Assembly (NCBI GenBank): GCA_024682255.1 | Contig: GCA_024682255.1_4716.1 | Strand: one strand, 5' to 3' | DNA from: a phage | Length of the DNA stretch: 64,000 nt | Shown: positions 1 through 12,109 of the stretch, in pieces | Layout of the letters: the number at the start of each line of letters is the position of its first letter | Numbering within the stretch: the stretch's first letter is position 1 | Made by a program: the position numbers and the translations under genes | The notes under the pieces: model-generated | Database searches by the model: none | Seen by the model: only the letters and a program-made list of their open reading frames with translations | Told to the model about the DNA's origin: nothing

Positions 1-1471
1 CATCCGCTTCCGGCATAACCTTTGCAGGCGCTAATTTCGCGGCTTTTGGTTTAACTTCAACATACTCGGCAAGTGTTAATCCAGAACCGTCGGGTGCTTC
101 GATTTCGTGAATGGCATCGGCGTTACGCATCGCTGCTTTATATTGGACACCGCTTAACTGACCCGCATCGGCCAGATCGCTCGCGCGTACCAACACCGCA
201 TCCGATAACGACTGAATATATTCACCATGTGTTTTTGGTAACGTTGTCGCATCAAAGACATCAACCTTTTCTTCTTCGGTATCGTCGGTAACGACTTCGA
301 AGAGATCGTCGGTAATGTCCTGATCTTCATCGGGTTGGAAATCCGGCTGTACTTCTACCCCGGGTACTTCACGGACATCTTCGAACGAGCGTTCTACAAT
401 GGCGTTCCACGCATCAGCGTCATCGTCTTCATCCGAACCACCGACCAACTCCGCTTCTAACTCATCGGGATCAAGAACGGTAGCCAGATCCTCACCGTTA
501 GGAAGCACGACGTCGCGATCATCGTACTCCGCATCCGGGCTGTCTGCAAGAATATCCCGCTCTTGACGAAGAACCTGTTCCTCTTCTTGTTTCTGTTCTT
601 CTTCATTCGCGCTCTGCGACCACAGACGTGTTACCGCCATCATCCAACGACGCTGGAAGGTTTCGAGTGTCGTTTTATCGAGTTCTTCCCCTTCCTTTAC
701 AAGTCCGGTACGCCATTCTTCCAGCAAGCCGAGATTCAGCGTAAAGAAGTACACACCGTCTGTAAATACAACGTTAAGCTTATCCAGCGTGGCCCTGTCT
801 AACGAAGCCATCGTGCTGTTCTCACGATCGGTTCCCAGCCAGCGGAAGAAGTCAAAGAACGACAGCTCCTCCGGTGTGGCGAAATTCATGAGGTTGTTAC
901 GGGTCGGTGCCTGTTGCGTGGTACGCATCAACGAAATCTTCGGCAATGTTGACGGTATACGGAACAACAAAAAGTGTTGACGATCGCTTTGCTGTGCGAT
1001 TTCGTTGGCTTTCGACCAAATTGTTTTACGTACGTTGAACCATTCATCATACCAACGGGTGAGCGTTGGACGATAAATGTACATGTGGTTAAGATGCGCG
1101 TAGTTAGCAACGATCTGAGCGTTGATGTTTTTCTCTACCGTGCTTAGATCGGTAACCAAACGAAAACGACGATGTGATGCACGATAATCCAATTTCGCTC
1201 GTGGGAGTTGGAATCGTTGATCGCGTCGAGGTGCGCCCTGTTTGGTTGCGAGATCATCAGCAAACGAAATCCATAGTTGAGCACTTTCTTTACTCAGCAT
1301 GTATTCGTTTTCTGGAGGACCTATCAACGATGGATCCGTTGCGGTGTAATGATAGACAGCATAACGCGGCAGCTGCAATAGCTGCACTAAACGTAATCTC
1401 GGTGATAGTAGCTCTTGGTAGCGTCTGACACCGAACTGTCGGTAGTAATCAAGGTATTTAAGTTTTGCCAT
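1..1471 (-). CDS. hypothetical protein, N-terminal part only (gene continues beyond window start)
   Basis: Open minus-strand frame from ATG at 1469-1471 to position 1 (starts MAKLKYLDYYRQFGVRRYQ); absent from ORF track because no stop in window. ATG lies 3 nt after the stop of beta-prime exon 2 with GGAG ~10 nt upstream. No recognisable motif. Confidence 0.5.
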   Translation of the reverse strand, partial: MAKLKYLDYYRQFGVRRYQELLSPRLRLVQLLQLPRYAVYHYTATDPSLIGPPENEYMLSKESAQLWISFADDLATKQGAPRRDQRFQLPRAKLDYRASHRRFRLVTDLSTVEKNINAQIVANYAHLNHMYIYRPTLTRWYDEWFNVRKTIWSKANEIAQQSDRQHFLLFRIPSTLPKISLMRTTQQAPTRNNLMNFATPEELSFFDFFRWLGTDRENSTMASLDRATLDKLNVVFTDGVYFFTLNLGLLEEWRTGLVKEGEELDKTTLETFQRRWMMAVTRLWSQSANEEEQKQEEEQVLRQERDILADSPDAEYDDRDVVLPNGEDLATVLDPDELEAELVGGSDEDDDADAWNAIVERSFEDVREVPGVEVQPDFQPDEDQDITDDLFEVVTDDTEEEKVDVFDATTLPKTHGEYIQSLSDAVLVRASDLADAGQLSGVQYKAAMRNADAIHEIEAPDGSGLTLAEYVEVKPKAAKLAPAKVMPEAD

Positions 1472-1474
1472 GGG

Positions 1475-1654
1475 TTAGGCTCCACGAGGTCCCGTTAAGT
1501 TGCGTAATAGGAACGCAACTGTATCGTAACCAATATCAATGTTGAATTTATTTTTACCGCTTACCCAAAAAGCACGCTTCTTGTGCGAGTTGGTAATTTC
1601 GTCAATGGCTTCCATGGAATAAAGAACGTTAACCGAGACCGTATCACCGTCGAA
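1475..1654 (-). CDS. RNA polymerase beta-prime-like subunit (N-terminal segment), exon 2 (59 codons + stop)
   Basis: Minus-strand translation FDGDTVSVNVLYSMEAIDEITNSHKKRAFWVSGKNKFNIDIGYDTVAFLLRNLTGPRGA* matches the bacterial beta-prime stretch [21 protein letters not shown]...; frame has no Met so it is absent from the ORF track; stop TAA at 1475-1477. Confidence 0.7.
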   Translation of the reverse strand, partial: FDGDTVSVNVLYSMEAIDEITNSHKKRAFWVSGKNKFNIDIGYDTVAFLLRNLTGPRGA

Positions 1655-2161
1655 CCTTTTCTTCGCCTCAGGTCGCTACGCTGAGACCGCCTGCGTGGAT
1701 ACGTACATCACAGGCTGCTTGCACTTTCATGCAAGAGGAGACTATATCAAACCGTCAGCTTCACCTTCTCGATCGTATCGAGAATGCGGTGCTGAAGTAT
1801 TCTTCAGCAGCACCTGCTACGGTAACCTACACTTCGAAGACGCTTGTCCTCTACAGGGTGGTAAATCCCTTAGTCGTTGAACCTGCGTTGTTTCACATTC
1901 TTGTTTGCAAGAATGCCGTATTGCTACGCAACAACCAGGCTGCTGATTGCCCATTATCACGCACCTTAGCACCGCTTACGCGGCTTTTCTTTCAGCCTAA
2001 GCCTCCGTGGGAGGTAATGTCTGATTAAATCAGACATCGCCAGGAGGTAGTGCATCTCAACTGTTGTTTCCGCCTTTCGGCACCTCATGGGTTGTTGAGC
2101 TTTAGGGGTTCCCAGCAATTCGTAGGTTTTTCAAGCACTCCCTTTCGGGAATACCGGACCA
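1655..2161 (-). ncRNA. group I intron ribozyme core (P3-P9 region)
   Basis: On the minus strand: P-like GAATTGCTGGGAACCCC (~2105-2121), Q-like AATCAGCAGCC (~1938-1948), R-like GGTTCAACGACTAAGGG (~1866-1883), S-like GATATAGTCTCC (~1737-1748). P4 pairing UGCUG/CAGCA and P7 pairing GACUA/UAGUC are present; GAAA tetraloop hairpins (~2070-2084, ~2139-2151). No long ORF. Confidence 0.7.
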
Positions 2162-3646
2162 TTACCCTTTAGCTAATTTATTTAAGTATCTGAAATCCCA
2201 CTTATCTTTGCGTCTATTTTCGCACTTAATAGCTTGGTTCTTTATTCTCCAAGCCACCTTTGTTTTAGGTAATTGGCTGTAATTGGCCGCTGACGCAGTA
2301 CCTAAAACAACGGTTACGGTACCATCGGGTTTAGTAATCTCTACAGCGCGATAATGCTTACGTAACACATTACGCCAATATTCACGGCGTTCTGGCTCAG
2401 CATACTCAAGCATATAACCGTTGGTATCGACCAGACCGTAACACTCGTTTAAACGAGAGGTAGCGGCCGGTCTACTAATACCGATTGCTTTAGCCGCGTC
2501 AACCACGGTTTTATACGGGGTTTCATTACCGTCTCTATCTACAACCACAATAAAATCTGGACGCGAATCGAGCAGCTGCTGTCTTCGTTCAAGGGCTTGT
2601 TGATGAAGCACCTTGTTAACATGTTCGAACCCGTAACCTTCTGGACCGCGCCACCCTGGATTGTTATTCGCTCGATAAAGTACCGTCGCTGATTTCACTC
2701 CAGTCTGACGTGACGCCTCGTTTGCACTATGAACAACCGTGGTAGAGCCGTCAGGGTGATATATCCGTATCTGGTTCATTATACCGGAACCAACAAAATT
2801 ACCATCAGCTGATTTAATATCCGGCCATGGTTGAGGATTATCCTTGAATTTAACCACCCAACGACTGTTAAACAATTTGACTTTCCGGGCATGTTTACCC
2901 ATTGTCGTATCCGTAACACCAGCTACAACAGAGGCTTGCGTGATACTCAGGTACTCAGTAACGGTATCGTCCCATGTATCCCAGAGCAGAACCGGTTTAT
3001 TGTCGTCGCGTAAACCGTGTTCGATAGCATGCAGGACATTACGACTTCTGGTTGCCCATTCAAGGTTGTCAAGAGAATAGTTCCACTTATCGGCATCAAG
3101 ATGGTTAACGTCCATCCTATCGACATCGGCTGGATACTCTCTCCACGCCAGCATTAGACAACGGTGTAATACCTTGCTACCGGCCTTCTGGCGACAATCA
3201 TGTTTCAAGCAGACAGTAACGTAACGGTTCGTTACGAAACACGGGCGACAAATGCTCCCGTCTTTTCTGTCCCTGATATCACCTACTTCGTTTATTACAT
3301 ATCTCGTCAGTCCTGGAATAACGCGATAGCCAGGATACTTAGCGATTTCATAAGCGGGCTCGAACCGATAGGATAAATTATCAACATCCCAGTTAGATTC
3401 GTCACCATCAACAAACATCGCTTTGACGTATTTCTGTGTTTCAATATCAACCAGGATGTTTTTGTGTGCGATACAAATCAATGCTGGGATATTGAATTCG
3501 CGACCGGCTAAGATAACCGTGTCGCCATCTCTCGGTACCTCGACGTGGGTATCGCGATACCGCAAGTTTCCATAGCCGTCTATTTCAATCCAGCTTAGAA
3601 ACGGAATAGATATAAATTCTTTTTCAGATACTCGCCATTTAAACAT
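2162..3646 (-). CDS. HNH homing endonuclease (intron-encoded)
   Basis: Track ORF, 494 aa; HNH_3-type motif VNHLDADKWNYSLDNLEWATRSRNVLHAIEHG; ATG with AGGGG SD; lies between the 5' splice site and the ribozyme core. Confidence 0.85.
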   Translation of the reverse strand: MFKWRVSEKEFISIPFLSWIEIDGYGNLRYRDTHVEVPRDGDTVILAGREFNIPALICIAHKNILVDIETQKYVKAMFVDGDESNWDVDNLSYRFEPAYEIAKYPGYRVIPGLTRYVINEVGDIRDRKDGSICRPCFVTNRYVTVCLKHDCRQKAGSKVLHRCLMLAWREYPADVDRMDVNHLDADKWNYSLDNLEWATRSRNVLHAIEHGLRDDNKPVLLWDTWDDTVTEYLSITQASVVAGVTDTTMGKHARKVKLFNSRWVVKFKDNPQPWPDIKSADGNFVGSGIMNQIRIYHPDGSTTVVHSANEASRQTGVKSATVLYRANNNPGWRGPEGYGFEHVNKVLHQQALERRQQLLDSRPDFIVVVDRDGNETPYKTVVDAAKAIGISRPAATSRLNECYGLVDTNGYMLEYAEPERREYWRNVLRKHYRAVEITKPDGTVTVVLGTASAANYSQLPKTKVAWRIKNQAIKCENRRKDKWDFRYLNKLAKG

Positions 3647-3731
3647 ATAAACCCCTGTATAACCTTACTGTCACACTAAGAGGTTTATCTGTAAATTCTT
3701 ACAGAATGGCGTAATTTTACTAAAAGGGCCG

Positions 3732-5198
3732 ATCACCGCCTAAACCGGCGAGGTATGGCGCAGGAACAATAGTCGTTTCTACGAACGAAGCATTAGGTAA
3801 CCAGTCGGGGTATTCCCATGCGATAAATCGTTCATCCGTTATTGGTTCCCAGTTACTATCCAGTTCGGTTTTCGGTTTTGCAGCGACGGTTGTACGCGCG
3901 TAACAGGTTAACGGGATAACGGATTGCATACCCGATACCGGATAACGTGTTACCATCGCAGCCAGGTTATTCCAGTACTTATATCCGGCGATATAGATAA
4001 GCTCGGTGTAAGTAATGGGGTGAACATCCGCACCAGGTTTATTCAACATCTCTGGGGGTAATTCACTCATACCACGGAATAACCGAAACGAATCGTTGTT
4101 CACATAGACGAGGCAAAGATAACGTCCATTGACCATGATAGGTTCATTACGCACACCAGGATCGCTTAAGGTGTTCAGTAAACGTTCGATACCGTCCCAG
4201 GTTGTAAAGTCATCGATGGTGTCTGGATCAAGCGTGACACGTTCACGTTCCATCGTTTCGGTATCGATAAGTTCAACTTCTGTAACATCACGGACAAATA
4301 TTTCCTGCAAAATCCCCGTACGTAACGCATGTTGCGTTACAGGGAGAGCAGCTTTACTCATCTGGTATAACCCTAACTGAACCGCGGTACAGGAAGGCTG
4401 GTTAGGCGACCCTAGTACCTCCGTTGTGGGGTTAATTGCCGAAATAACGTTACGGGTTGAGTTCCAAACGCGACGTGAACCGAACTTGCCTTGGAAGATC
4501 CCTTTCTTACCTTGGAACATATCCAACAACAAAGCGTAGATATCGTTAAATGTTCTCTGTAAGCTCCAGCGCTGGCCGTCGTAAACGGGATCAGAATAAT
4601 CTTTTAATCCATCAGGGACGGTGTTAGAAATTGCAAGGAAACGACGATACAACTCTGTGATTTCTTGCTCGCTTTCATACCCGCCTTCTTTTACTTCTAT
4701 TTCACGTAAGCCCGCAGGTAAAACCAGTAAGTGACGAGTCATCGCTTTGAACATGTTCTCTTCGACAACTTTAATTCGTAGCTCTCGTTGAGCTGAACCT
4801 GTTGAAACGAACTTGATATCCGCGACGTGTTGTGCAAAGAACCCATATCCTGTTTGTCCTGTTAACGCATCAGACGCAACGAAGTCGCGTTGTTCAGGAT
4901 CCCACCGAGCGTACGCCTTCCCCGACATGATATCGCCATAGAGGTGTTTTAGTCGAATGAGGCGATCGTAAATGACGGGATGCAGGATTTCAACCTTACA
5001 TTCAATCACCGCAAATCGACGGTCTCGATCTTCGCTACCCGCACTACCAAAGATGGTGTAAGAATAGAAACCATCATCGTGGAAATTACCGGTGCTTGGG
5101 TCACGGATGCTCATGCTCGTGATCTTGGGGAGAAAACGTAACTGCTGTTTATCGAGGTGTAAAATACTAATGTTAAACGGCTCTCTGACTTTAGCCAT
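3732..5198 (-). CDS. RNA polymerase beta-prime-like subunit (N-terminal segment), exon 1
   Basis: Track ORF 3720..5240. Start moved to ATG at 5196-5198 (M15, AGAGGAG SD). Beta-prime-like motifs: TIFGS (cf. RIFGP), LLVLPAGLRE (cf. LTVLPVLPPDLRP), ITELYRRFLAISN (cf. LNDLYRRVINRNN), GKKGIFQGKFGSRRVWNSTRNVI (cf. [23 protein letters not shown]), VTRYPV (cf. NRAPTLH). Ends ..PAPYLAGLGGD at the position of ..AAYNAD, so the last codons RPF plus the TAG/TAA stops are read as intronic. Confidence 0.75.
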
Positions 5199-5443
5199 GG
5201 AGACACTCCTCTTTACCACCACCGGCTGCGGCGGTATCATCTGAACACACGAGAGACGTAATGGGTGATGGCGTCACCCATCGCTTCCTTGCTTGAGGCG
5301 AGGAAGTTATTAGGTTACGTACCTGCCTGATTTTATCAGGTGGGCGATGTGTGAAGTTACGCTTCAACATTATCAATGCCGAAGGTAAACTTCGTGCATC
5401 ACGTTCCAACGTAACATGGGAACGTATCGAACTGGAGGTATAC
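5199..5443. promoter_or_regulatory. divergent intergenic region with palindromic hairpins
   Basis: Lies between divergent starts of beta-prime (5198, minus) and the giant virion protein (5444, plus). Inverted repeats GGGTGA-tggcg-TCACCC (~5263-5279), CTTCCT..AGGAAG (~5284-5306) and CGTTCC..GGAACG (~5400-5422). Confidence 0.35.
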
Positions 5444-8400
5444 ATGGTAGATAAAACCCGTGTTGAGGGTGATGATAATTGGGATAACTGGGATGAAGAC
5501 TTCTCCCTGGATCTCGATTTCAACGAACCCAAAGACGATCGTAAACCGATAACACGCTTTGCGGTAGGCGCGGTTAAAGGTGCCGCTGAGGATCTTACTT
5601 CCTACGAAAGAATGAAGGAGATCGCCAGAAACGCGTTGCCTAAGGGCTACAGCGACGGTATGGATCTTATCGATTCCGCCGTCGGATCCACGAAGGAACT
5701 ATACAATGAAGCCGTTCGTGACGTTCTTCCTAAGGTCCAAAGCTCAAAACGGTTAGCCGCACAACTAACCAAGAAATACCGTGCGAGCATGCCCGATTTC
5801 TCAAAGAAAATTCTCGAGCAATGGGAGCGAGAAGCCAAGGAAGAAGACGAACGTAAACAAGCTGAAGAAACCCTTCGTCAACGCATGGCGAGCGCTGGGG
5901 ACGATGAGATCGCCCGCAAGGTTGCCGAGGCATTAGGTGAATCAGCAAACCAAAGCGCGGATCAGTTCGCTGAACAGCAAGCAAAAGAAAGTATCCGTGA
6001 CGATATCGCTGACAAACGGTACGCTGTAACCAACAAACAAATGAGTGCGATGCAAGAAGGCGTCGCCAAGATGGTTGGTTTCAACAATGAATTCGCTGCA
6101 CGCTACATGCGTAAAAGCCTGGAACTGAAATATCGTTCCTTAGCGATTCAACGTGCGAGTTTTGATCAGCATAAAAAGTTAGCCGAAGTCTATATCGGTT
6201 TATTACAAAACATCCAGAAGAATACGGCTTTACCTGATGCGGCTAAAGCGAAAATGTCGGAAGAATTCCGTCGTAGCGCATACCAACGCTTCTTTGGTAA
6301 TGCGTTAGATGCGATGGGTTCTTTCGAGAACCGTTTCTTTGCCGATGTTAAGAAGAACCTTGCCACCAACGCATTAGGTGCTTTAAAAGGCGTCGTATCT
6401 GGCGCAAACGATGCGTTATACGGTTTAAACGAAGCGCGTGACTCGATGTCCATGATGGACGGGATGGGGTCAGAAGGCGATATTAAGGAAATGCAAGGAA
6501 AGATGTTGGGTCAGTTCATTGGCTCAACTGTCGCCCCATGGATGGCTAATAAAGGCAGGATGGCGTTACGCGATTTAGCAAAACGTCACCCCAATGCTAA
6601 ATTCGCTAGCGCGTTAAAAGCCGTGGATCAAGGTGGTGAGGCTGCCGCTTACACGACGCGTAATCTCGGTAAACTGCTCCAGGAAGATATTCGTAAAAAC
6701 GAATTCAATCTTAGCGATCCGTTTTACAAGCAATTAATACGTGGCGCAGGGCGTTGGGCGTTCAACATGGACAGCGGACGTAACTTCCGTGTGATGAACG
6801 ACACCGCTGAAACACTGGCGGAGCAAACGTCTTTCGACGGTTTAACTTACCGCAGCATCAACGAGGTTATTCCTGGCTTTCTTGCACGCATTCTGAAAAG
6901 CAGTGAAGGTATCCGCACCGGAAACAGCGATCCTGACTACGAGGTCTATGACGGCATCAGCGGGCAATTCGTGTCTCAGCGCACGCGTGAACAAAGCGTC
7001 AACGACACGCTGTTTAACAAACGTTCGTTTGGTTATTACGCAAGCCGTTTCAATGAGGTCATCTCGGTCATCGATCCTGATAAGCAATTATCGGAAAAAG
7101 CCAGAAAGGCGCTGGCTAAGCAGTTGGCACGAGATAGCGACGCAAATATCGCATTCGACCCGGCCCGTTTTACGGATGAAAGCAACTTCGATCGTAGTAT
7201 TGACCGCGACGCTATTAAGGAACTTTCCACGTACTTTCGTGACCGTTACGGTATTCGTGATGATGTCAACGATAAGGGCGAACGTCATCAGGTCATTGGA
7301 AACCGCGGGCAATATTACACGGAACGTAACCGAGCTGATCTTCGCTACGGAAATCTGAAATCGTTACAGCCGGATATCCAGCGTAACCTTAACCTACTGA
7401 AACGTACTGGCGACGTCCAATATCTGGAACGTATCGGTATTGTAACGAGAAATAGCGACGGAAGTTACTCGGTTAATCACGATCGGTATTTCTCTGAAAT
7501 CGATCGGTACATCGACCGACCGGAGTACGCTGAACGTAGTGATGTTAATACGCGATTAACCGCTCAGGAAACAAGAGCGCTGGCGCTAGGTTATCGTGAT
7601 GCAAAACCATCAGCTGGTGACGTCCAAAATGCGGGTCTGCCGAACATCGATCGTAAGGCTGTTGGCGCAGTAACCGTTGATGAAAACATCGGCTACGATA
7701 AATGGTGGAACGATACAGGTGTTATCACCACATCGCTTGAAGAACAGAATCGAGCATGGCAAGAGCTTTATCTCGAAGCGTTGTCTGAAGCATCCGAACA
7801 ACGTGTTGAAATGCTTACGTTACTGAAAGCCATTTCTGAGAAAGACTGGTCTAATAACGTTTCGCTGGATGGTGTAGATGTACCTGAAGGTGCGGCACCC
7901 ATTTCATTTATCGATCGTGCCAAACAAAAACTCGGTACACGCAACCTCTTTAAAGGTGGTCGTAATCTTCTCTGGAAAGGAATTAAAAATACCGCACGTT
8001 TGGGTGTTAAAGGCGCGCGCTGGGGTGCAGAACGCACGTTGGGTAGTTTGGTAAATTCTGGCCGACGCATTATCGATTTCAACCGCTTCGTGTTCGGCGC
8101 ATTATCCAAGGTTGATCAGGTTCCGTTTGACATTTACGTTAAAGGGGAATCCCAACCACGCATATTGGCGGCCAAACTTCGTCAGGGGTTATACTTCGAC
8201 GAAGCGACAGGAAAAGCCGTAAAACGGATGAAGGATATCAAAGGCCCACTCGTTGATGTGGATGGAAATATCGTAATCAGCAACGAGGATATCGAGAAAG
8301 GGTTGGTCACTCGCGCTGGTCGAGCCTTTGAGAATTCAGGACTTAAGGCGTGGGCACGTGAAGGTCTTAATGGAATCACGACGGTATTAAGTCTCCCACG

Positions 8401-11400
8401 GATGTTAAAACGCGGTGCGGTCGAGATCTACAAACAGCTCGACAAGACGCCCGACGTTTACGTCAAGGGAGAATCAACGCCTCGTCTGTTGTCCATGGTG
8501 TTAGCAGCGGGTGGGTATTTCCGTCGGTCGGATGGACAAGTCATCAAAAATCTTGAAGATATCGATGGTGATGTTGTTGATGCACAAGGTAACGTCGTAC
8601 TTACGCTTGCCGACATGCAGAAAGGACTTGTCGATAAATACGGTAAAGCGATTCGTCGCTTAAAAGAAAAGCTCATCAACTTCGGTGTAAAAGCTTTTAC
8701 GTTACCGTTAACGCTGCTACGTAAGACAAAGGACATCCTTAAAGCCCTTCCAGGTAAAACCGTTAACGGTCTACGACGGATGGGATTAAACTTCCAATCA
8801 CCTGACGCATTACTGGTGGGAACAACGTCGAGCATGGTAGATCGCCTCGATGCTATTTACCAGCTTCTTGACCAGCGTATGCCGGGAGGTGATAAGGATT
8901 ACCGCGATTGGAATGGTGATGGTGTTCGAGAAGGATCGTTGGAAGACCTGAAACGTAAGCGTGAAGCCAAGGAAAACGGTAAGGATGAATCAGGCAAAGA
9001 TTCCAATAAAGGAGAAGAAAAGGAGAAGAAACGAGGGTTACTCGGAAGCCTTTTCGATATGCTCGGCGATACCGCATTAGGCAAACGACTCATGGCGAGT
9101 CCGCTTGGAAAAATTCTGGGTGGTCTTGGGGCGGTGTTAAGCGGCGGAGCATCGTTAACCGGATTGTTAGGCAAGGGTCTCATTAGTGGAACCGGCGCGC
9201 TGGTCAAGGGAGGACTAAGTGCGGCAGGATGGTTAGGACGTGGTGCGTTAATGGCGGGCGGAGCCGCATTGAACGCTGTTGGTGGTTTATCGGGATTAGG
9301 CGCATTCCTTATATCACCTGTTGGGCTTGCTATTGCAGGTGGTGCATTGGCTGCTTATGCAGGATGGAAGATCTATCAGCATTTCGCCGAGAAGCCTGAC
9401 CCGATGCAGAAGCTCCGTCTTATTGCATACGGTGCAAAAGGGGACGATAAAGACTTCAATAAGAAGCTGCTTGCGACAGAAACATACCTCACCGATCACG
9501 TGGTTATGACCGGGGATACCATCGGATTCGATCCGAAAGCGGATTCTGAAAAGATTCTCGAAATCTGGGAATTGTCCCTGGAAGACTCCGACCGAATGAA
9601 CGAATGGAAACGCTGGTATCTGCATCGTTTTATTCCTGTTTTCGCTCGTGCGTACAAACTCTGGAAAGAGCATATGCCGGACGAGAAGAAATACATGGAA
9701 ATGGATAAATATCCGAACGGTGAGAACAAAGTGAAATGGTCGGAAGCGTTTATCTGGCCTTCCGATAGTCCTGACGGTCCGTATTACGTCGAAGCTAACC
9801 CGTTGGGTTCTTCTGGTGCGACGCGTTATATTGCTGGTCAAGACGTCAAAACCTTGATGCTGAAACAACTCGAAGCCATCAAGAAAGAGTACCAGAATCA
9901 GATCAAACAATACACTCATGATGAGGCTATTGCTGATTGGTCACGGATGTCTGACACACAACGTAAATCCGTTGCGCCTAACGCATTACGTGGTCAGAAA
10001 GCGTCGTTACGTTTTAACGATAAACGTTACAACAGCGCTGGCGCTAAAGGACGACAGAAGCTTGACGCGACCGCGGTTATTGAAAGCGTAGACCGTCGTG
10101 GTAGAAAATGGGTTGCCGGTGGATACATCGATGAACTCACCAGTCTCCGTGTTCGTGCGTACGGTATTAAGGTTCCGTTGTTAAGTCAGATAAAAGTGCT
10201 GATGGAACTCGAAGACGCTGTAGAACCCGGCGTTGTCGCTGAAGGTAAAGGTGTTAAATACGGTGGCGATCTTGTTGCGCTCTACAAGAAATTCGCGACG
10301 AAATTCGGAAGAGACGTTAACAGCAAGCGGGATCAGGATATCTGGTTCGCTTGGATGAATAACCGTTTCCTACCCGTCTTTTTAACCTATTACCAACAAG
10401 TTAGCGAAATGGGCGGTCAAGGGCTTCTGTCCGACGTGGTACAGAACCTGAAAGACAGCCAACGTTGGGAAATCGGTGAAGCACTTGTCGCAACGCAATA
10501 CCGTGATGAGAAAGGTACACTGCAGCCTGTATGGTCCTGGAATAGTTGTGGTTTCTCCGGTACTGAAGCTAACACCACCAGCAGTTCAACAAAGAGCCAG
10601 CTCGATCTGTTAAAAGAATATGCGGATAAAGAGAAGGTTCGTGAGAAGAACGCGGAAGCATCGCAAGAGGATGCCGATAAATTATCGAAGATCCAAGAGC
10701 TGATGATGAAGCAGGCTGGGTACGAGAAGAAAGACGGTGTCTGGCAGAAGAAATCTCGCATTACCGGTGGGATGAGTAACTCCGAAGCGAATTACAACCC
10801 CAATAGGAATAAGGTCGGTGAAAGCAGCTTTACGGCTTCGGCTACGTCCAATGCGGGATTGGGATCAACCGGCGATCTTACTGGATTGCCTAACATGGGC
10901 TTACAGAAACCTGCAATGGGACCAGGTCCTGAAGCTGGACGTCGTGCGCTTGTTAAATCCGCTGTAAAACGCGGCATTACCGATCCGATGGAAATGGCCA
11001 TGTTCCTTGCGAACATCGAACATGAATCGGGGAACTACACTCACGTACGTGAGGGGAACTATAAGACACCGGAGCGTCTTAAACAGGTCTTCCCTTACAA
11101 ATTCCGTGATGTGCAGGATGCCGCACAGACGATCAGCATGGGGCCGGAGGCGGTATTCGAACGTGTGTACGGTAATCGTAAAGATCTCGGAAACACACAG
11201 AAAGGAGACGGGGCGAAGTATTTAGGACGTGGCTTCATTCAGGTTACCGGTAAAGCTAACTACGCTCGTCTGTCTAAGACCTTGAATAAGGATCTTGTCA
11301 GCGATCCGACCTACCTGGAAACGCCGGAAGGTGCGGCGGAAGGTAGTGTCGCGTGGTGGCTCAACCGAGGTAATGTATTACGCGATCCCGCAAAACGGGG

Positions 11401-12109
11401 TGATGTGCGCCAAGTTCGTTATCTGGTTAACGGTGGTTTTAACGGATTACGTGATGTTGAACAGCGTTCAGCTTATTGGATTCAGGCGGCTAAGAATGGC
11501 ACCCTGAAGAAAATGATGGACGAGTTATCGGGGTCAACATCGGACGATCAAGTTGAAGGACCGACCACTGCCGAACAGGTGAAGAACGAAGCAGCCCAAG
11601 AGGCAAACGGAACACCTGCTGTAAGCAACGATCCGCAAGCCCCAGTATCTTCTACTACCCCTGAAGCTAAACCGTCTGCGGCTGCCGGTACTGCTCCAGC
11701 ACCTGGAGAAGCATCACCAACGCCTGGAAGTTTCGAAACAGCAAAAGCCGCGGCAGGACAACCGACATCAACACCAGCACCTAGCGATTTGCCGTCAAAC
11801 CCGGGTGCAAATCGAGGGATATCGGTTCCGAATACGCCTGCACAGGTTGCGCAGTCTGCGACACAAACATCGGTTGCGAGCGAGAACTTCTACGGCAGCG
11901 CAGGTGAAATTCTCCGACAGCAGCTGACCACACAGCAGAACATCGAGAAGAACACCGGTAGAACGAATGAACTTATTTCGGAATTAATCCAAGCCGTTAA
12001 GGGTTCTTCTATCGGTAAGGGTTCTGCAGGTCCTTCTCAACAACAGACGATGTCGCTACCTAATCGTCCGCAAGGAATCTCTCCAACACGGACAAGGTAC
12101 GCACAGTAG
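5444..12109 (+). CDS. giant virion-associated protein with C-terminal GH19 lysozyme-like domain (tape-measure/ejection-protein-like)
   Basis: Track ORF 5351..12109 (GTG start). Likely start is ATG 5444 with GGAGG SD. Coiled-coil-rich N-terminal half; Gly/Ala-rich hydrophobic segment (LGGLGAVLSGGASLTGLLGKGLISGTGALVKGGLSAAGWLG...); GH19 signature HESGNY ... YLGRGFIQVTGKANYARL (~nt 10970-11500); Pro/Ala/Ser/Thr-rich linker near the C-terminus. Confidence 0.85.
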   Translation: MVDKTRVEGDDNWDNWDEDFSLDLDFNEPKDDRKPITRFAVGAVKGAAEDLTSYERMKEIARNALPKGYSDGMDLIDSAVGSTKELYNEAVRDVLPKVQSSKRLAAQLTKKYRASMPDFSKKILEQWEREAKEEDERKQAEETLRQRMASAGDDEIARKVAEALGESANQSADQFAEQQAKESIRDDIADKRYAVTNKQMSAMQEGVAKMVGFNNEFAARYMRKSLELKYRSLAIQRASFDQHKKLAEVYIGLLQNIQKNTALPDAAKAKMSEEFRRSAYQRFFGNALDAMGSFENRFFADVKKNLATNALGALKGVVSGANDALYGLNEARDSMSMMDGMGSEGDIKEMQGKMLGQFIGSTVAPWMANKGRMALRDLAKRHPNAKFASALKAVDQGGEAAAYTTRNLGKLLQEDIRKNEFNLSDPFYKQLIRGAGRWAFNMDSGRNFRVMNDTAETLAEQTSFDGLTYRSINEVIPGFLARILKSSEGIRTGNSDPDYEVYDGISGQFVSQRTREQSVNDTLFNKRSFGYYASRFNEVISVIDPDKQLSEKARKALAKQLARDSDANIAFDPARFTDESNFDRSIDRDAIKELSTYFRDRYGIRDDVNDKGERHQVIGNRGQYYTERNRADLRYGNLKSLQPDIQRNLNLLKRTGDVQYLERIGIVTRNSDGSYSVNHDRYFSEIDRYIDRPEYAERSDVNTRLTAQETRALALGYRDAKPSAGDVQNAGLPNIDRKAVGAVTVDENIGYDKWWNDTGVITTSLEEQNRAWQELYLEALSEASEQRVEMLTLLKAISEKDWSNNVSLDGVDVPEGAAPISFIDRAKQKLGTRNLFKGGRNLLWKGIKNTARLGVKGARWGAERTLGSLVNSGRRIIDFNRFVFGALSKVDQVPFDIYVKGESQPRILAAKLRQGLYFDEATGKAVKRMKDIKGPLVDVDGNIVISNEDIEKGLVTRAGRAFENSGLKAWAREGLNGITTVLSLPRMLKRGAVEIYKQLDKTPDVYVKGESTPRLLSMVLAAGGYFRRSDGQVIKNLEDIDGDVVDAQGNVVLTLADMQKGLVDKYGKAIRRLKEKLINFGVKAFTLPLTLLRKTKDILKALPGKTVNGLRRMGLNFQSPDALLVGTTSSMVDRLDAIYQLLDQRMPGGDKDYRDWNGDGVREGSLEDLKRKREAKENGKDESGKDSNKGEEKEKKRGLLGSLFDMLGDTALGKRLMASPLGKILGGLGAVLSGGASLTGLLGKGLISGTGALVKGGLSAAGWLGRGALMAGGAALNAVGGLSGLGAFLISPVGLAIAGGALAAYAGWKIYQHFAEKPDPMQKLRLIAYGAKGDDKDFNKKLLATETYLTDHVVMTGDTIGFDPKADSEKILEIWELSLEDSDRMNEWKRWYLHRFIPVFARAYKLWKEHMPDEKKYMEMDKYPNGENKVKWSEAFIWPSDSPDGPYYVEANPLGSSGATRYIAGQDVKTLMLKQLEAIKKEYQNQIKQYTHDEAIADWSRMSDTQRKSVAPNALRGQKASLRFNDKRYNSAGAKGRQKLDATAVIESVDRRGRKWVAGGYIDELTSLRVRAYGIKVPLLSQIKVLMELEDAVEPGVVAEGKGVKYGGDLVALYKKFATKFGRDVNSKRDQDIWFAWMNNRFLPVFLTYYQQVSEMGGQGLLSDVVQNLKDSQRWEIGEALVATQYRDEKGTLQPVWSWNSCGFSGTEANTTSSSTKSQLDLLKEYADKEKVREKNAEASQEDADKLSKIQELMMKQAGYEKKDGVWQKKSRITGGMSNSEANYNPNRNKVGESSFTASATSNAGLGSTGDLTGLPNMGLQKPAMGPGPEAGRRALVKSAVKRGITDPMEMAMFLANIEHESGNYTHVREGNYKTPERLKQVFPYKFRDVQDAAQTISMGPEAVFERVYGNRKDLGNTQKGDGAKYLGRGFIQVTGKANYARLSKTLNKDLVSDPTYLETPEGAAEGSVAWWLNRGNVLRDPAKRGDVRQVRYLVNGGFNGLRDVEQRSAYWIQAAKNGTLKKMMDELSGSTSDDQVEGPTTAEQVKNEAAQEANGTPAVSNDPQAPVSSTTPEAKPSAAAGTAPAPGEASPTPGSFETAKAAAGQPTSTPAPSDLPSNPGANRGISVPNTPAQVAQSATQTSVASENFYGSAGEILRQQLTTQQNIEKNTGRTNELISELIQAVKGSSIGKGSAGPSQQQTMSLPNRPQGISPTRTRYAQ

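Follow-up and report, generated by a model that had tools for sequence, protein, structure and literature searches.

A 64-kb window of phage DNA (the whole stretch analyzed here, from contig GCA_024682255.1_4716.1, numbered from its first letter) very probably carries, on its minus strand, a group I intron that encodes an HNH-family open reading frame (ORF) and lies inside the DFDGD codons of a virion RNA polymerase beta-prime-like subunit gene, in a Goslar-like nucleus-forming jumbo phage. An intron at the same site of phiKZ and an Intron_gpI feature in the Goslar record are already known, and the window intron is the Goslar-lineage counterpart of the phiKZ gp180/gp179 intron. What is new is the definition of its boundaries to the nucleotide by means of intron-less alleles, the placement of its ORF in the P1 loop together with a compensated helix, the breadth of occupancy of the D/FDGD site (a slash marks the insertion point throughout) and a set of synonymous differences linked to the junction.

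The coding sequence upstream of the intron belongs to an ORF at 3720..5240 whose C-terminus reads ...PAPYLAGLGGD-RPF-TAG-TAA, with a GAT codon for the Asp that ends in T 3732. Exon 1 accordingly closes with ...GGC GGT GAU, with the 5′ splice site at its final base, U 3732; the MAKV start codon stands at 5198, preceded by AAAGAGGAG. The intron ends in G 1655, and from 1654 onward the same strand reads UUC GAC GGU GAU ACG GUC (FDGDTVSVNVLYSMEAIDEI). Joining 3732 to 1654 keeps the frame and gives a product of 548 amino acids (aa) counted from MAKV, with LAGLGGDFDGDTVSV as the peptide across the junction; at the DNA level the joined exons read GGCGGTGAT/TTCGACGGT, also written GGCGGTGAT/TTCGACGGTGAT, and GGCGGTGAT/TTCGAC is the intron-plus flank. 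The insertion point separates the first Asp codon of the Mg-binding DFDGD motif from the Phe codon that follows it.

Natural alleles without the intron fix these boundaries. A search with the spliced protein recovered 548-aa proteins (P0001–P0003) that differ from it at one or two residues (about 99.6–99.8% aa identity) and whose genes lie on six independent contigs (L007–L012) in the same gene order as in the window. Exon 1 plus exon 2 aligns with their 1,647-nucleotide (nt) genes without a gap at 95–97% nt identity, so the extra DNA is exactly 3731..1655, the junction is fixed to the nucleotide, and removal of the intron restores the conserved uninterrupted frame seen in all six. More broadly, 244 phage records span the junction in one tblastn piece, among them KTN4_220 and pEa_SNUABM_37_169, which are single ORFs. 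The terminal G recurs in Goslar, phiKZ, fMGyn-Pae01 and the contigs L013, L014 and L016. The end of the upstream ORF, the frame of the second exon, the in-frame GGD/FDGD join of 548 aa and the U and G at the two boundaries had all been claimed in a first-pass annotation made from the letters alone, and all are borne out. One of the intron-less alleles, that encoding P0003, comes from a 238-kb contig whose NCBI assembly carries the label Salmonella enterica serovar Enteritidis, which suggests an association of Goslar-like phages with Salmonella as well, or infection of it.

The identity of the interrupted gene was drawn from PDB and PHROG searches and from a homologue profile, since a Pfam scan with the spliced protein as a single sequence matched no RNA polymerase family. 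Searched on its own against PDB, the spliced protein finds the N-terminal beta-prime subunit of the RNA polymerase of phage AR9 and beta-prime chains of bacteria and plastids, with weak but specific matches. The signal is stronger with a profile built from 25 full-length homologues, which detects AR9 beta-prime at 6e-16 and, at 1e-7 to 1e-5, 78 distinct chains from bacteria and plastids that are deposited under the name beta-prime (a few as gamma or beta); in its alignment with plastid beta-prime, 'ivHssrLaglgaDfDGDtvsvnvvysdeaie' places DFDGD in register with the metal-binding loop NADFDGD of the double-psi beta-barrel, and D489, D491, G492 and D493 are invariant. P0001, a near-identical relative of the joined product, matches PHROG 2986 'RNA polymerase beta subunit' with an expectation value (E) of 2.6e-179, and the gene order gp181-gp180-gp178 is common to the window, Goslar, phiKZ, KTN4, pEa_SNUABM_37 and metagenomic contigs. 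Synteny and PHROG 2986 establish homology to phiKZ gp180, which is stated to contain DFDGD (PMC10612078). Judged by homology and gene order, the interrupted gene is the N-terminal beta-prime-like subunit of a split virion RNA polymerase, homologous to phiKZ gp180 and Goslar gp205. The first-pass annotation had named a phage RNA polymerase beta-prime gene and expected its spliced product to align with beta-prime at DFDGD; the alignment holds for bacterial, plastid and AR9 proteins and so does the beta-prime identity, whereas the gene is not a full beta-prime.

Between the exons, the Rfam covariance model Intron_gpI (RF00028) matches 2180..1718 at 57.9 bits against a gathering score of 50 (E 4.2e-12 for the 64-kb window, model positions 1–253 complete), the sole Rfam match in the window; the orthologous Goslar intron scores 67.7 bits. 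The alignment places P3 (AACCUAC with GUAGGUU) as well as P6 and P8. In P3, three pairs are fully compensated when Goslar-type introns are compared with those of phiKZ type, and P8 and P9 are formed by helices of different sequence in the two lineages. A MAFFT/RNAalifold alignment of the Goslar-type and phiKZ-type cores misaligned the 3′ half, with the GAUAUAGUC motif offset, and only its P3–P5 counts were used.

Five more Goslar-type introns (L017–L021), found through relatives of the ORF, give six distinct sequences of four 5′-end sequence types in which the remaining helices can be compared. A guide sequence, (G/A)GUC, stands immediately 5′ of P2, and its G-3/C, A-2/U and U-1.G pairs with the exon are present in 6/6 sequences; the +1 pair covaries, being C-G in four and U-A in two. 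phiKZ-type introns have a homologous 'AAGUCC' in the corresponding position, next to P2 on its 5′ side, which pairs with GGAU of their exon. P2 itself carries one compensated pair (CCC/GGG vs CUC/GAG). Together, P1 and P2 have 96% of cells paired vs ≤53% when partners are slid, a lenient control given that the structure was derived from the same six sequences. Minimum free energy co-folding of the window and Goslar did not recover the 4-base-pair (bp) P1, and the assignment is made because of its position, its homology to phiKZ and the one covarying pair. Among other candidates, a 5′-proximal hairpin (GGCG-G-UGAU with AUUACGCC) would put U-1 opposite A and is not kept in Goslar; a register using CCGGU fits the window only and is likewise not kept in Goslar; and guides from brute-force enumeration were mostly chance matches in the ORF or core helices, excluded by topology.

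A second helix, lying directly inside P1, extends it across the ORF. Its two strands in Goslar are GGAAAGGCUA and UAGCUUUUCU, differing from those of the window, and in L019 and L021 they differ again, each pairing its own partner. Indeed, Goslar and the window have unrelated sequences over the initial ~85 nt of the intron and in the segment past the ORF stop, with the pairing still kept. With their own partners the helices reach -12.1 (window) and -12.5 (Goslar) kcal/mol, vs -2.5 and -6.3 when crossed. The cognate test is clean for types A and B and not for C and D, which have a common UUUUCUG motif, and the cognate assignment ranks 2/24. These pairings put the 1.5-kb ORF in the loop at the tip of an extended P1, a loop closed off by a compensated long-range helix, and so refine the earlier placement of the ORF 5′ of the ribozyme core.

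The product of the intron ORF matches Pfam HNH_3 (PF13392) at residues 176–204 (E 1.6e-8, 34.4 bits vs a cut-off of 24.8) and PHROG 59 and 959 'HNH endonuclease' (E 2e-24 and 2.7e-15); both the group I core and the intron-encoded HNH_3 endonuclease of the first-pass annotation are therefore recovered above the thresholds of their models. The protein is a distant relative of phiKZ gp179 (29% over aa 51–274, 224 aa, E 3e-19) and matches I-HmuI (1U3E) weakly (E 0.28), around the catalytic His/Asn motif and a C-terminal helix-turn-helix-like segment. It is full length in 6/6 distinct Goslar-type copies, and the LHRC...DVNHLD...DNLEWATRSRN motif, including the HNH His and Asn, is kept between the window ORF and Goslar gp206. 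Relative to gp206, its ratio of nonsynonymous to synonymous substitution rates (dN/dS) is 0.17, with 0.016 for the host gene, and its dS of 0.64 is three times the host-gene value of 0.22. By these substitution patterns, the ORF is under purifying selection with its HNH motif intact. Residues ~113–170 (window 3136–3310), just N-terminal to the catalytic motif, are far more diverged from gp206 than the rest; this divergence and the high dS suggest module exchange, or a history of the ORF unlike that of the exons.

From established group I and HNH biology, the precursor RNA would fold such that exogenous guanosine attacks after U 3732; the freed 3′-OH of exon 1 would then attack after G 1655 and join GAU to UUC, and translation of the ligated message would yield the 548-aa subunit with a complete DFDGD. 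Unspliced, translation would stop three codons into the intron and the product would lack four of the five motif residues, so that an essential enzyme would depend on splicing. The endonuclease would presumably nick or cut intron-less alleles of co-infecting relatives near the DFDGD codons, and repair would then copy the intron plus a few flanking exon bases into the cut allele. We predict both self-splicing and endonuclease activity for the window phage on these grounds.

Several observations weigh against this account. The Rfam match clears its threshold by only 8 bits, a small margin that reflects large peripheral insertions; P1 lies outside the Rfam model, is short (3 exon bp plus 1–2 intron bp) and was scored with the lenient control described above; P10 is weak (≤2 bp, U+1′ with G or A and U+2′ with A or G in some variants); the NUMOD1 (15.1 bits) and I-HmuI_NUMOD-like (13.2 bits) matches in the ORF both fall under their cut-offs; and one long-read transcriptome study of phiKZ reported no spliced reads for the sister intron under its conditions (PMC10914365). 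Against the last point, the literature treats gp180 as a DFDGD-containing protein (PMC10612078).

The phiKZ transcriptome would also fit a gene that is simply split, its exon 1 and exon 2 products being translated separately and assembling without RNA splicing. Chimallivirus RNA polymerases are indeed built from several beta and beta-prime fragments (PMC8287921), and database records give the pieces as separate coding sequences (CDSs). We nevertheless regard a split gene as highly improbable: exon 2 offers no start codon upstream of FDGD, its first in-frame ATG coming 14 codons on (ORF 1475..1615); the break falls within a metal-binding loop of five residues; the pieces exactly flank a canonical group I core, and the U at -1 and the terminal G are in place; and close relatives encode the uninterrupted protein. 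An intein is ruled out by the in-frame stops and the ribozyme, and a free-standing endonuclease by the location of the ORF inside the intron boundaries. The features of the locus are collected in table 1.

Table 1. Coordinates and supporting evidence for the intron, its exons and RNA elements, and the adjoining gene in the 64-kb window
Feature	Coordinates	Strand	Description and evidence
Exon 1, virion RNA polymerase beta-prime N-terminal subunit	3732..5198	-	489 codons, MAKV... to ...LAGLGGD; ORF list, sequence, collinear with intron-less alleles L007–L012
Exon 2, FDGDTVSV...LTGPRGA	1475..1654	-	59 codons plus TAA stop (1477..1475); collinear with intron-less alleles
Group I intron, 2,077 nt	1655..3731	-	5′ CGGCCC, 3′ ...AAAAGG, terminal G 1655; stretch missing from six uninterrupted alleles; Rfam match inside
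In-frame stop codons, UAG UAA	3717..3722	-	End exon-1 translation three codons inside the intron (GGD-RPF-stop-stop); from sequence
Intron ORF, HNH-family endonuclease, 494 aa	2162..3646	-	Motif ...LHRC...DVNHLDADKWNYSLDNLEWATRSRN...; Pfam, PHROG
Ribozyme core P2–P9	1718..2180	-	RF00028 alignment; J3/4-P4 AAUUGCUGG, J6/7-P7 GUUCAACGACUA, J8/7-P7 GAUAUAGUC, P9 UUGCAUGAAAGUGCAA
P1 5′ strand, exon G(-3) A(-2) U(-1) plus intron C(+1)	3731..3734	-	Pairs with guide GGUC 2160..2157 in six Goslar-type introns
Internal guide sequence GGUC	2157..2160	-	G 2159 is the U.G wobble partner of U 3732
P2 hairpin, GUAUUCCC GAAA GGGAGUGC	2135..2154	-	GAAA tetraloop, 8 bp, 100% of cells paired in six introns
Closing helix (P1 extension), 5′ strand CCCUUUUAG	3720..3728	-	Intron nt 4–12; pairs with 2172..2165
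Closing helix (P1 extension), 3′ strand CUAAAGGG	2165..2172	-	Overlaps last ORF codons
3′ terminal region, two hairpins (GCCUGUG...CGCAGGC; GUCUCAG...CUGAGGC) plus terminal G 1655	1655..1717	-	96% identical to Goslar; helices read by eye
Next gene, large beta-like virion RNA polymerase subunit (phiKZ gp178 / Goslar gp207 homologue)	1..1471	-	ATG 1471; runs off window; PHROG 3148 E 1.5e-84; synteny with Goslar, phiKZ, KTN4

The beta-like gene starts three bases past the stop codon of the host gene. On the other side, a 2,252-aa ORF at 5351–12109 on the plus strand, divergent from the RNA polymerase gene, corresponds to phiKZ gp181 and Goslar gp204, for which the annotations are tail fiber, putative chitinase or lysozyme-domain protein. 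No transfer RNA genes were found across the whole 64-kb window. Within the intron, a stable hairpin lies 15–45 nt upstream of the endonuclease start in every intron type (window 3650–3715 and equivalents in L001, L019, L020, L021 and L006; for example, CCUAUUAAU...AUUAAUAGG in Goslar and GUUAUCCUAU...AUAGGAUAAC in phiKZ), and in phiKZ-type introns the endonuclease start codon lies inside a long-range helix (AUAACCAUGUU with AACAUGGUUAU). The hairpin and the start-codon helix may control translation of the ORF.

The closest relative of the window region in the phage collection is Escherichia phage vB_EcoM_Goslar (93% nt identity over 1300–5400, with no other match at that level), whose orthologous locus (NC_048170, MK327938) has the same intron at the same site. 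The 3′ half of the ribozyme is 96% identical; at the protein level, identity is 99% for the exons and 84.5% for the ORF. The Goslar records annotate gp205 as 'RNA polymerase beta subunit', gp206 as hypothetical ('weakly similar to ORF179 [phiKZ]'), an Rfam-derived noncoding RNA 'Intron_gpI' and gp207, leaving the exons unjoined and exon 2 unannotated. Our literature search found no paper on the Goslar-type intron and none tying 'group I intron' to 'DFDGD'.

phiKZ, by contrast, shares the arrangement without detectable nucleotide similarity beyond short core motifs. Predictions of introns tied to its genes gp56, gp72 and gp179 and to gp55 and gp180, which are RNA polymerase genes, go back to the genome paper, and PMC11512511 cites them in these terms. 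The host gene and the synteny (gp181-like lysin, gp180, HNH, gp178-like beta) are the same, as is the codon boundary (GAU/UUC, between D and F of DFDGD): phiKZ reads ...GGG GCG GAU, then a 1,443-nt intron (gp179) ending in ...AACG, then UUC GAC GGG GAC. Its group I core scores 92 bits by Rfam, its HNH ORF also lies 5′ of P2 in a loop with a long-range closing helix, and its guide 'AAG(G)UCC' stands just 5′ of a GAAA-capped P2. The phiKZ intron is shorter than that of the window (1,443 vs 2,077 nt), as is its ORF (357 vs 494 aa); the 3′ ends differ (...AUAACG in phiKZ vs ...AAAGG in the window), the peripheral insertions in P5 and P8/P9 are larger in the window intron, and the hosts are different, the window belonging to an enterobacterial Goslar-like phage and phiKZ being a Pseudomonas phage.

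The D/FDGD boundary is, on the evidence of the genomes and contigs compared, a recurrent intron site across distant nucleus-forming phages. KTN4 is intron-less at the phiKZ position (...GCG GAU UUC GAC...), and fMGyn-Pae01 and OMKO1 have a 481-nt ORF-less intron there (88 bits by Rfam in fMGyn-Pae01). The fMGyn-Pae01 intron keeps the first ~95 nt and last ~380 nt of a phiKZ-type intron, with complementary deletion flanks, and looks like the product of a clean internal deletion of the endonuclease gene. At L003 2798–3278 (fMGyn-Pae01; also OMKO1), the gp179 start codon and ~40 nt are retained before the sequence resumes ~380 nt from the 3′ end; the fMGyn-Pae01 GenBank record has a truncated gp180 and no annotated intron. 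Homology is lost exactly after ...GL(G/N/D/S)AD in 11 of the 120 best homologue clusters (~9%), four of which (L013–L016) were inspected at contig level. L013 (375 nt, 82 bits) and L014 (401 nt, 75 bits) contain ORF-less group I introns at GAU/...G/UUC. In L016 (5459–6870, a JGI 3300041434 contig) a 1,412-nt insert at the exact D/FDGD boundary carries an HNH_3/NUMOD1 ORF and has no Rfam match at the gathering score; a group I core that has diverged is the probable reading. In L015 (1711–2196, a Logan SRR24994208 contig encoding a distant homologue with the motif DYDGD) the break lies one codon upstream (GGU, ~482 nt ...UUG, GAU UAU GAU GGG GAC), and the insert gave no Rfam match at the gathering score and no called ORF.

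The ORF-less introns bear on a second alternative, in which the intron splices but is immobile and its ORF is a decaying or domesticated remnant, either hard to lose or a maturase-like helper. Such introns at the same site (fMGyn-Pae01, L013 and L014) show that the intron can do without the ORF, phiKZ mutants with orf179 deleted are viable (PMC12676376), and the dN/dS of the window ORF is ten times that of the host gene, with residues ~113–170 highly diverged. That ratio is nonetheless well under 1, window and Goslar agree in the HNH His and Asn, each of the six distinct Goslar-type copies is full length, and plus and minus alleles coexist in near-identical phages, as expected for an element that is moving or has recently moved. 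On balance, an immobile intron seems unlikely to us.

Previously described systems frame what a mobile intron with an active endonuclease might do. In phiKZ, the literature treats gp179 as a homing endonuclease encoded by the intron, and phage that lack it are viable (PMC12676376). In PhiPA3, gp210 is a group I intron HNH nicking endonuclease whose activity, target and competitive benefit have been shown by experiment (PMC11620839, Birkholz et al. 2024, Science). Like gp210, the window endonuclease belongs to an HNH-bearing group I intron that breaks a virion RNA polymerase gene at conserved aspartates of the catalytic region, again in a jumbo phage of the nucleus-forming kind; the gene and site are different, gp210 interrupting the beta-like gene gp211/209 (a homologue of phiKZ gp178, the next gene downstream in the window), and gp210 is backed by experiment whereas the window endonuclease is known here from its sequence. 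The intron-less contig L008 (a Logan SRR7721869 contig) has a different group I intron at 10856–11222 (54 bits by Rfam) in the downstream beta-like gene, dividing this 1,448-aa virion RNA polymerase gene into 1,069 aa and 366 aa near the PhiPA3 gp210 intron site (phiKZ gp178 D1072); it is missing from L007 and L012, and the window ends before that position. Further afield, the I-HmuI and I-BasI introns of Bacillus phages (SPO1, SP82, Bastille), which lie in DNA polymerase genes, are also phage group I introns in an essential polymerase gene that encode an HNH endonuclease; the window differs from I-HmuI in its protein, which is nearly three times longer, and in its RNA polymerase rather than DNA polymerase host gene.

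The exon sequences around the junction (3728–3740 and 1648–1654 in the window) differ systematically between alleles with and without the intron. Intron-plus Goslar-type alleles read GG(C/T) GGT GAT/TTC in 7/7 cases and intron-minus alleles GG(T/C) GGG GAC/TTT in 6/6, the latter being GGTGGGGAC/TTTGAC(G/T)GGTGAT across the junction, so that -1 is U in all seven plus alleles and C in all six minus alleles. Fixed differences, defined on the window, Goslar and the six intron-minus alleles, number six sites in 1,647 nt, and 3/6 of them lie at -4, -1 and +3, all synonymous; in the near-fixed set, 4/26 sites fall within a 16-nt junction window (permutation P about 3e-5). U at -1 is a requirement of the U.G wobble, whereas the intron-plus states at -4 and +3 bring no gain in P1 or P10 pairing. 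These two states are best read, from allele comparison, as a minimal co-conversion tract or as target-site differences.

The same signature raises the possibility that the main selected role of the endonuclease is interference competition against the virion RNA polymerase gene of co-infecting intron-less relatives, and not homing as such. The precedent is PhiPA3 gp210 acting against phiKZ, in the same phage family and on the neighbouring RNA polymerase gene (PMC11620839), and the clustering of fixed synonymous differences at -4, -1 and +3, two of them without benefit to P1 or P10, is compatible with recoded, resistant targets in intron-less phages. However, a short co-conversion tract combined with the splicing requirement for U-1 predicts the same pattern, the flanks of intron-less KTN4 are exactly those of intron-containing phiKZ, and activity, import and competition would be ascribed to this particular protein by analogy. 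We consider interference as the main role less likely than not, and find somewhat more doubtful still the stronger proposal that surviving intron-less Goslar-like phages carry a recoded endonuclease-resistant target and that the endonuclease is a weapon against the catalytic centre of a rival's virion RNA polymerase gene, in a second independent case of the gp210 type. Were it true, an ongoing conflict could be read directly from natural allele pairs.

An intron inside the DFDGD codons has practical consequences for annotation, as Goslar, phiKZ and many related records show the catalytic subunit truncated and without four of the five DFDGD residues, exon 2 is missing from the records and the endonuclease frequently appears as hypothetical; with the CDSs joined, structural and proteomic studies would start from the correct protein. 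With its recurrent occupancy, the D/FDGD site is also a good natural system for homing and intron loss. Near-identical intron-plus and intron-minus Goslar-like phages infect tractable enterobacteria, and their flank differences provide a testable hypothesis on target recognition, co-conversion or resistance. Splicing of T4 introns is coupled to translation. In contrast, splicing of the intron described here must occur in a nucleus-forming phage, which separates transcription from translation.

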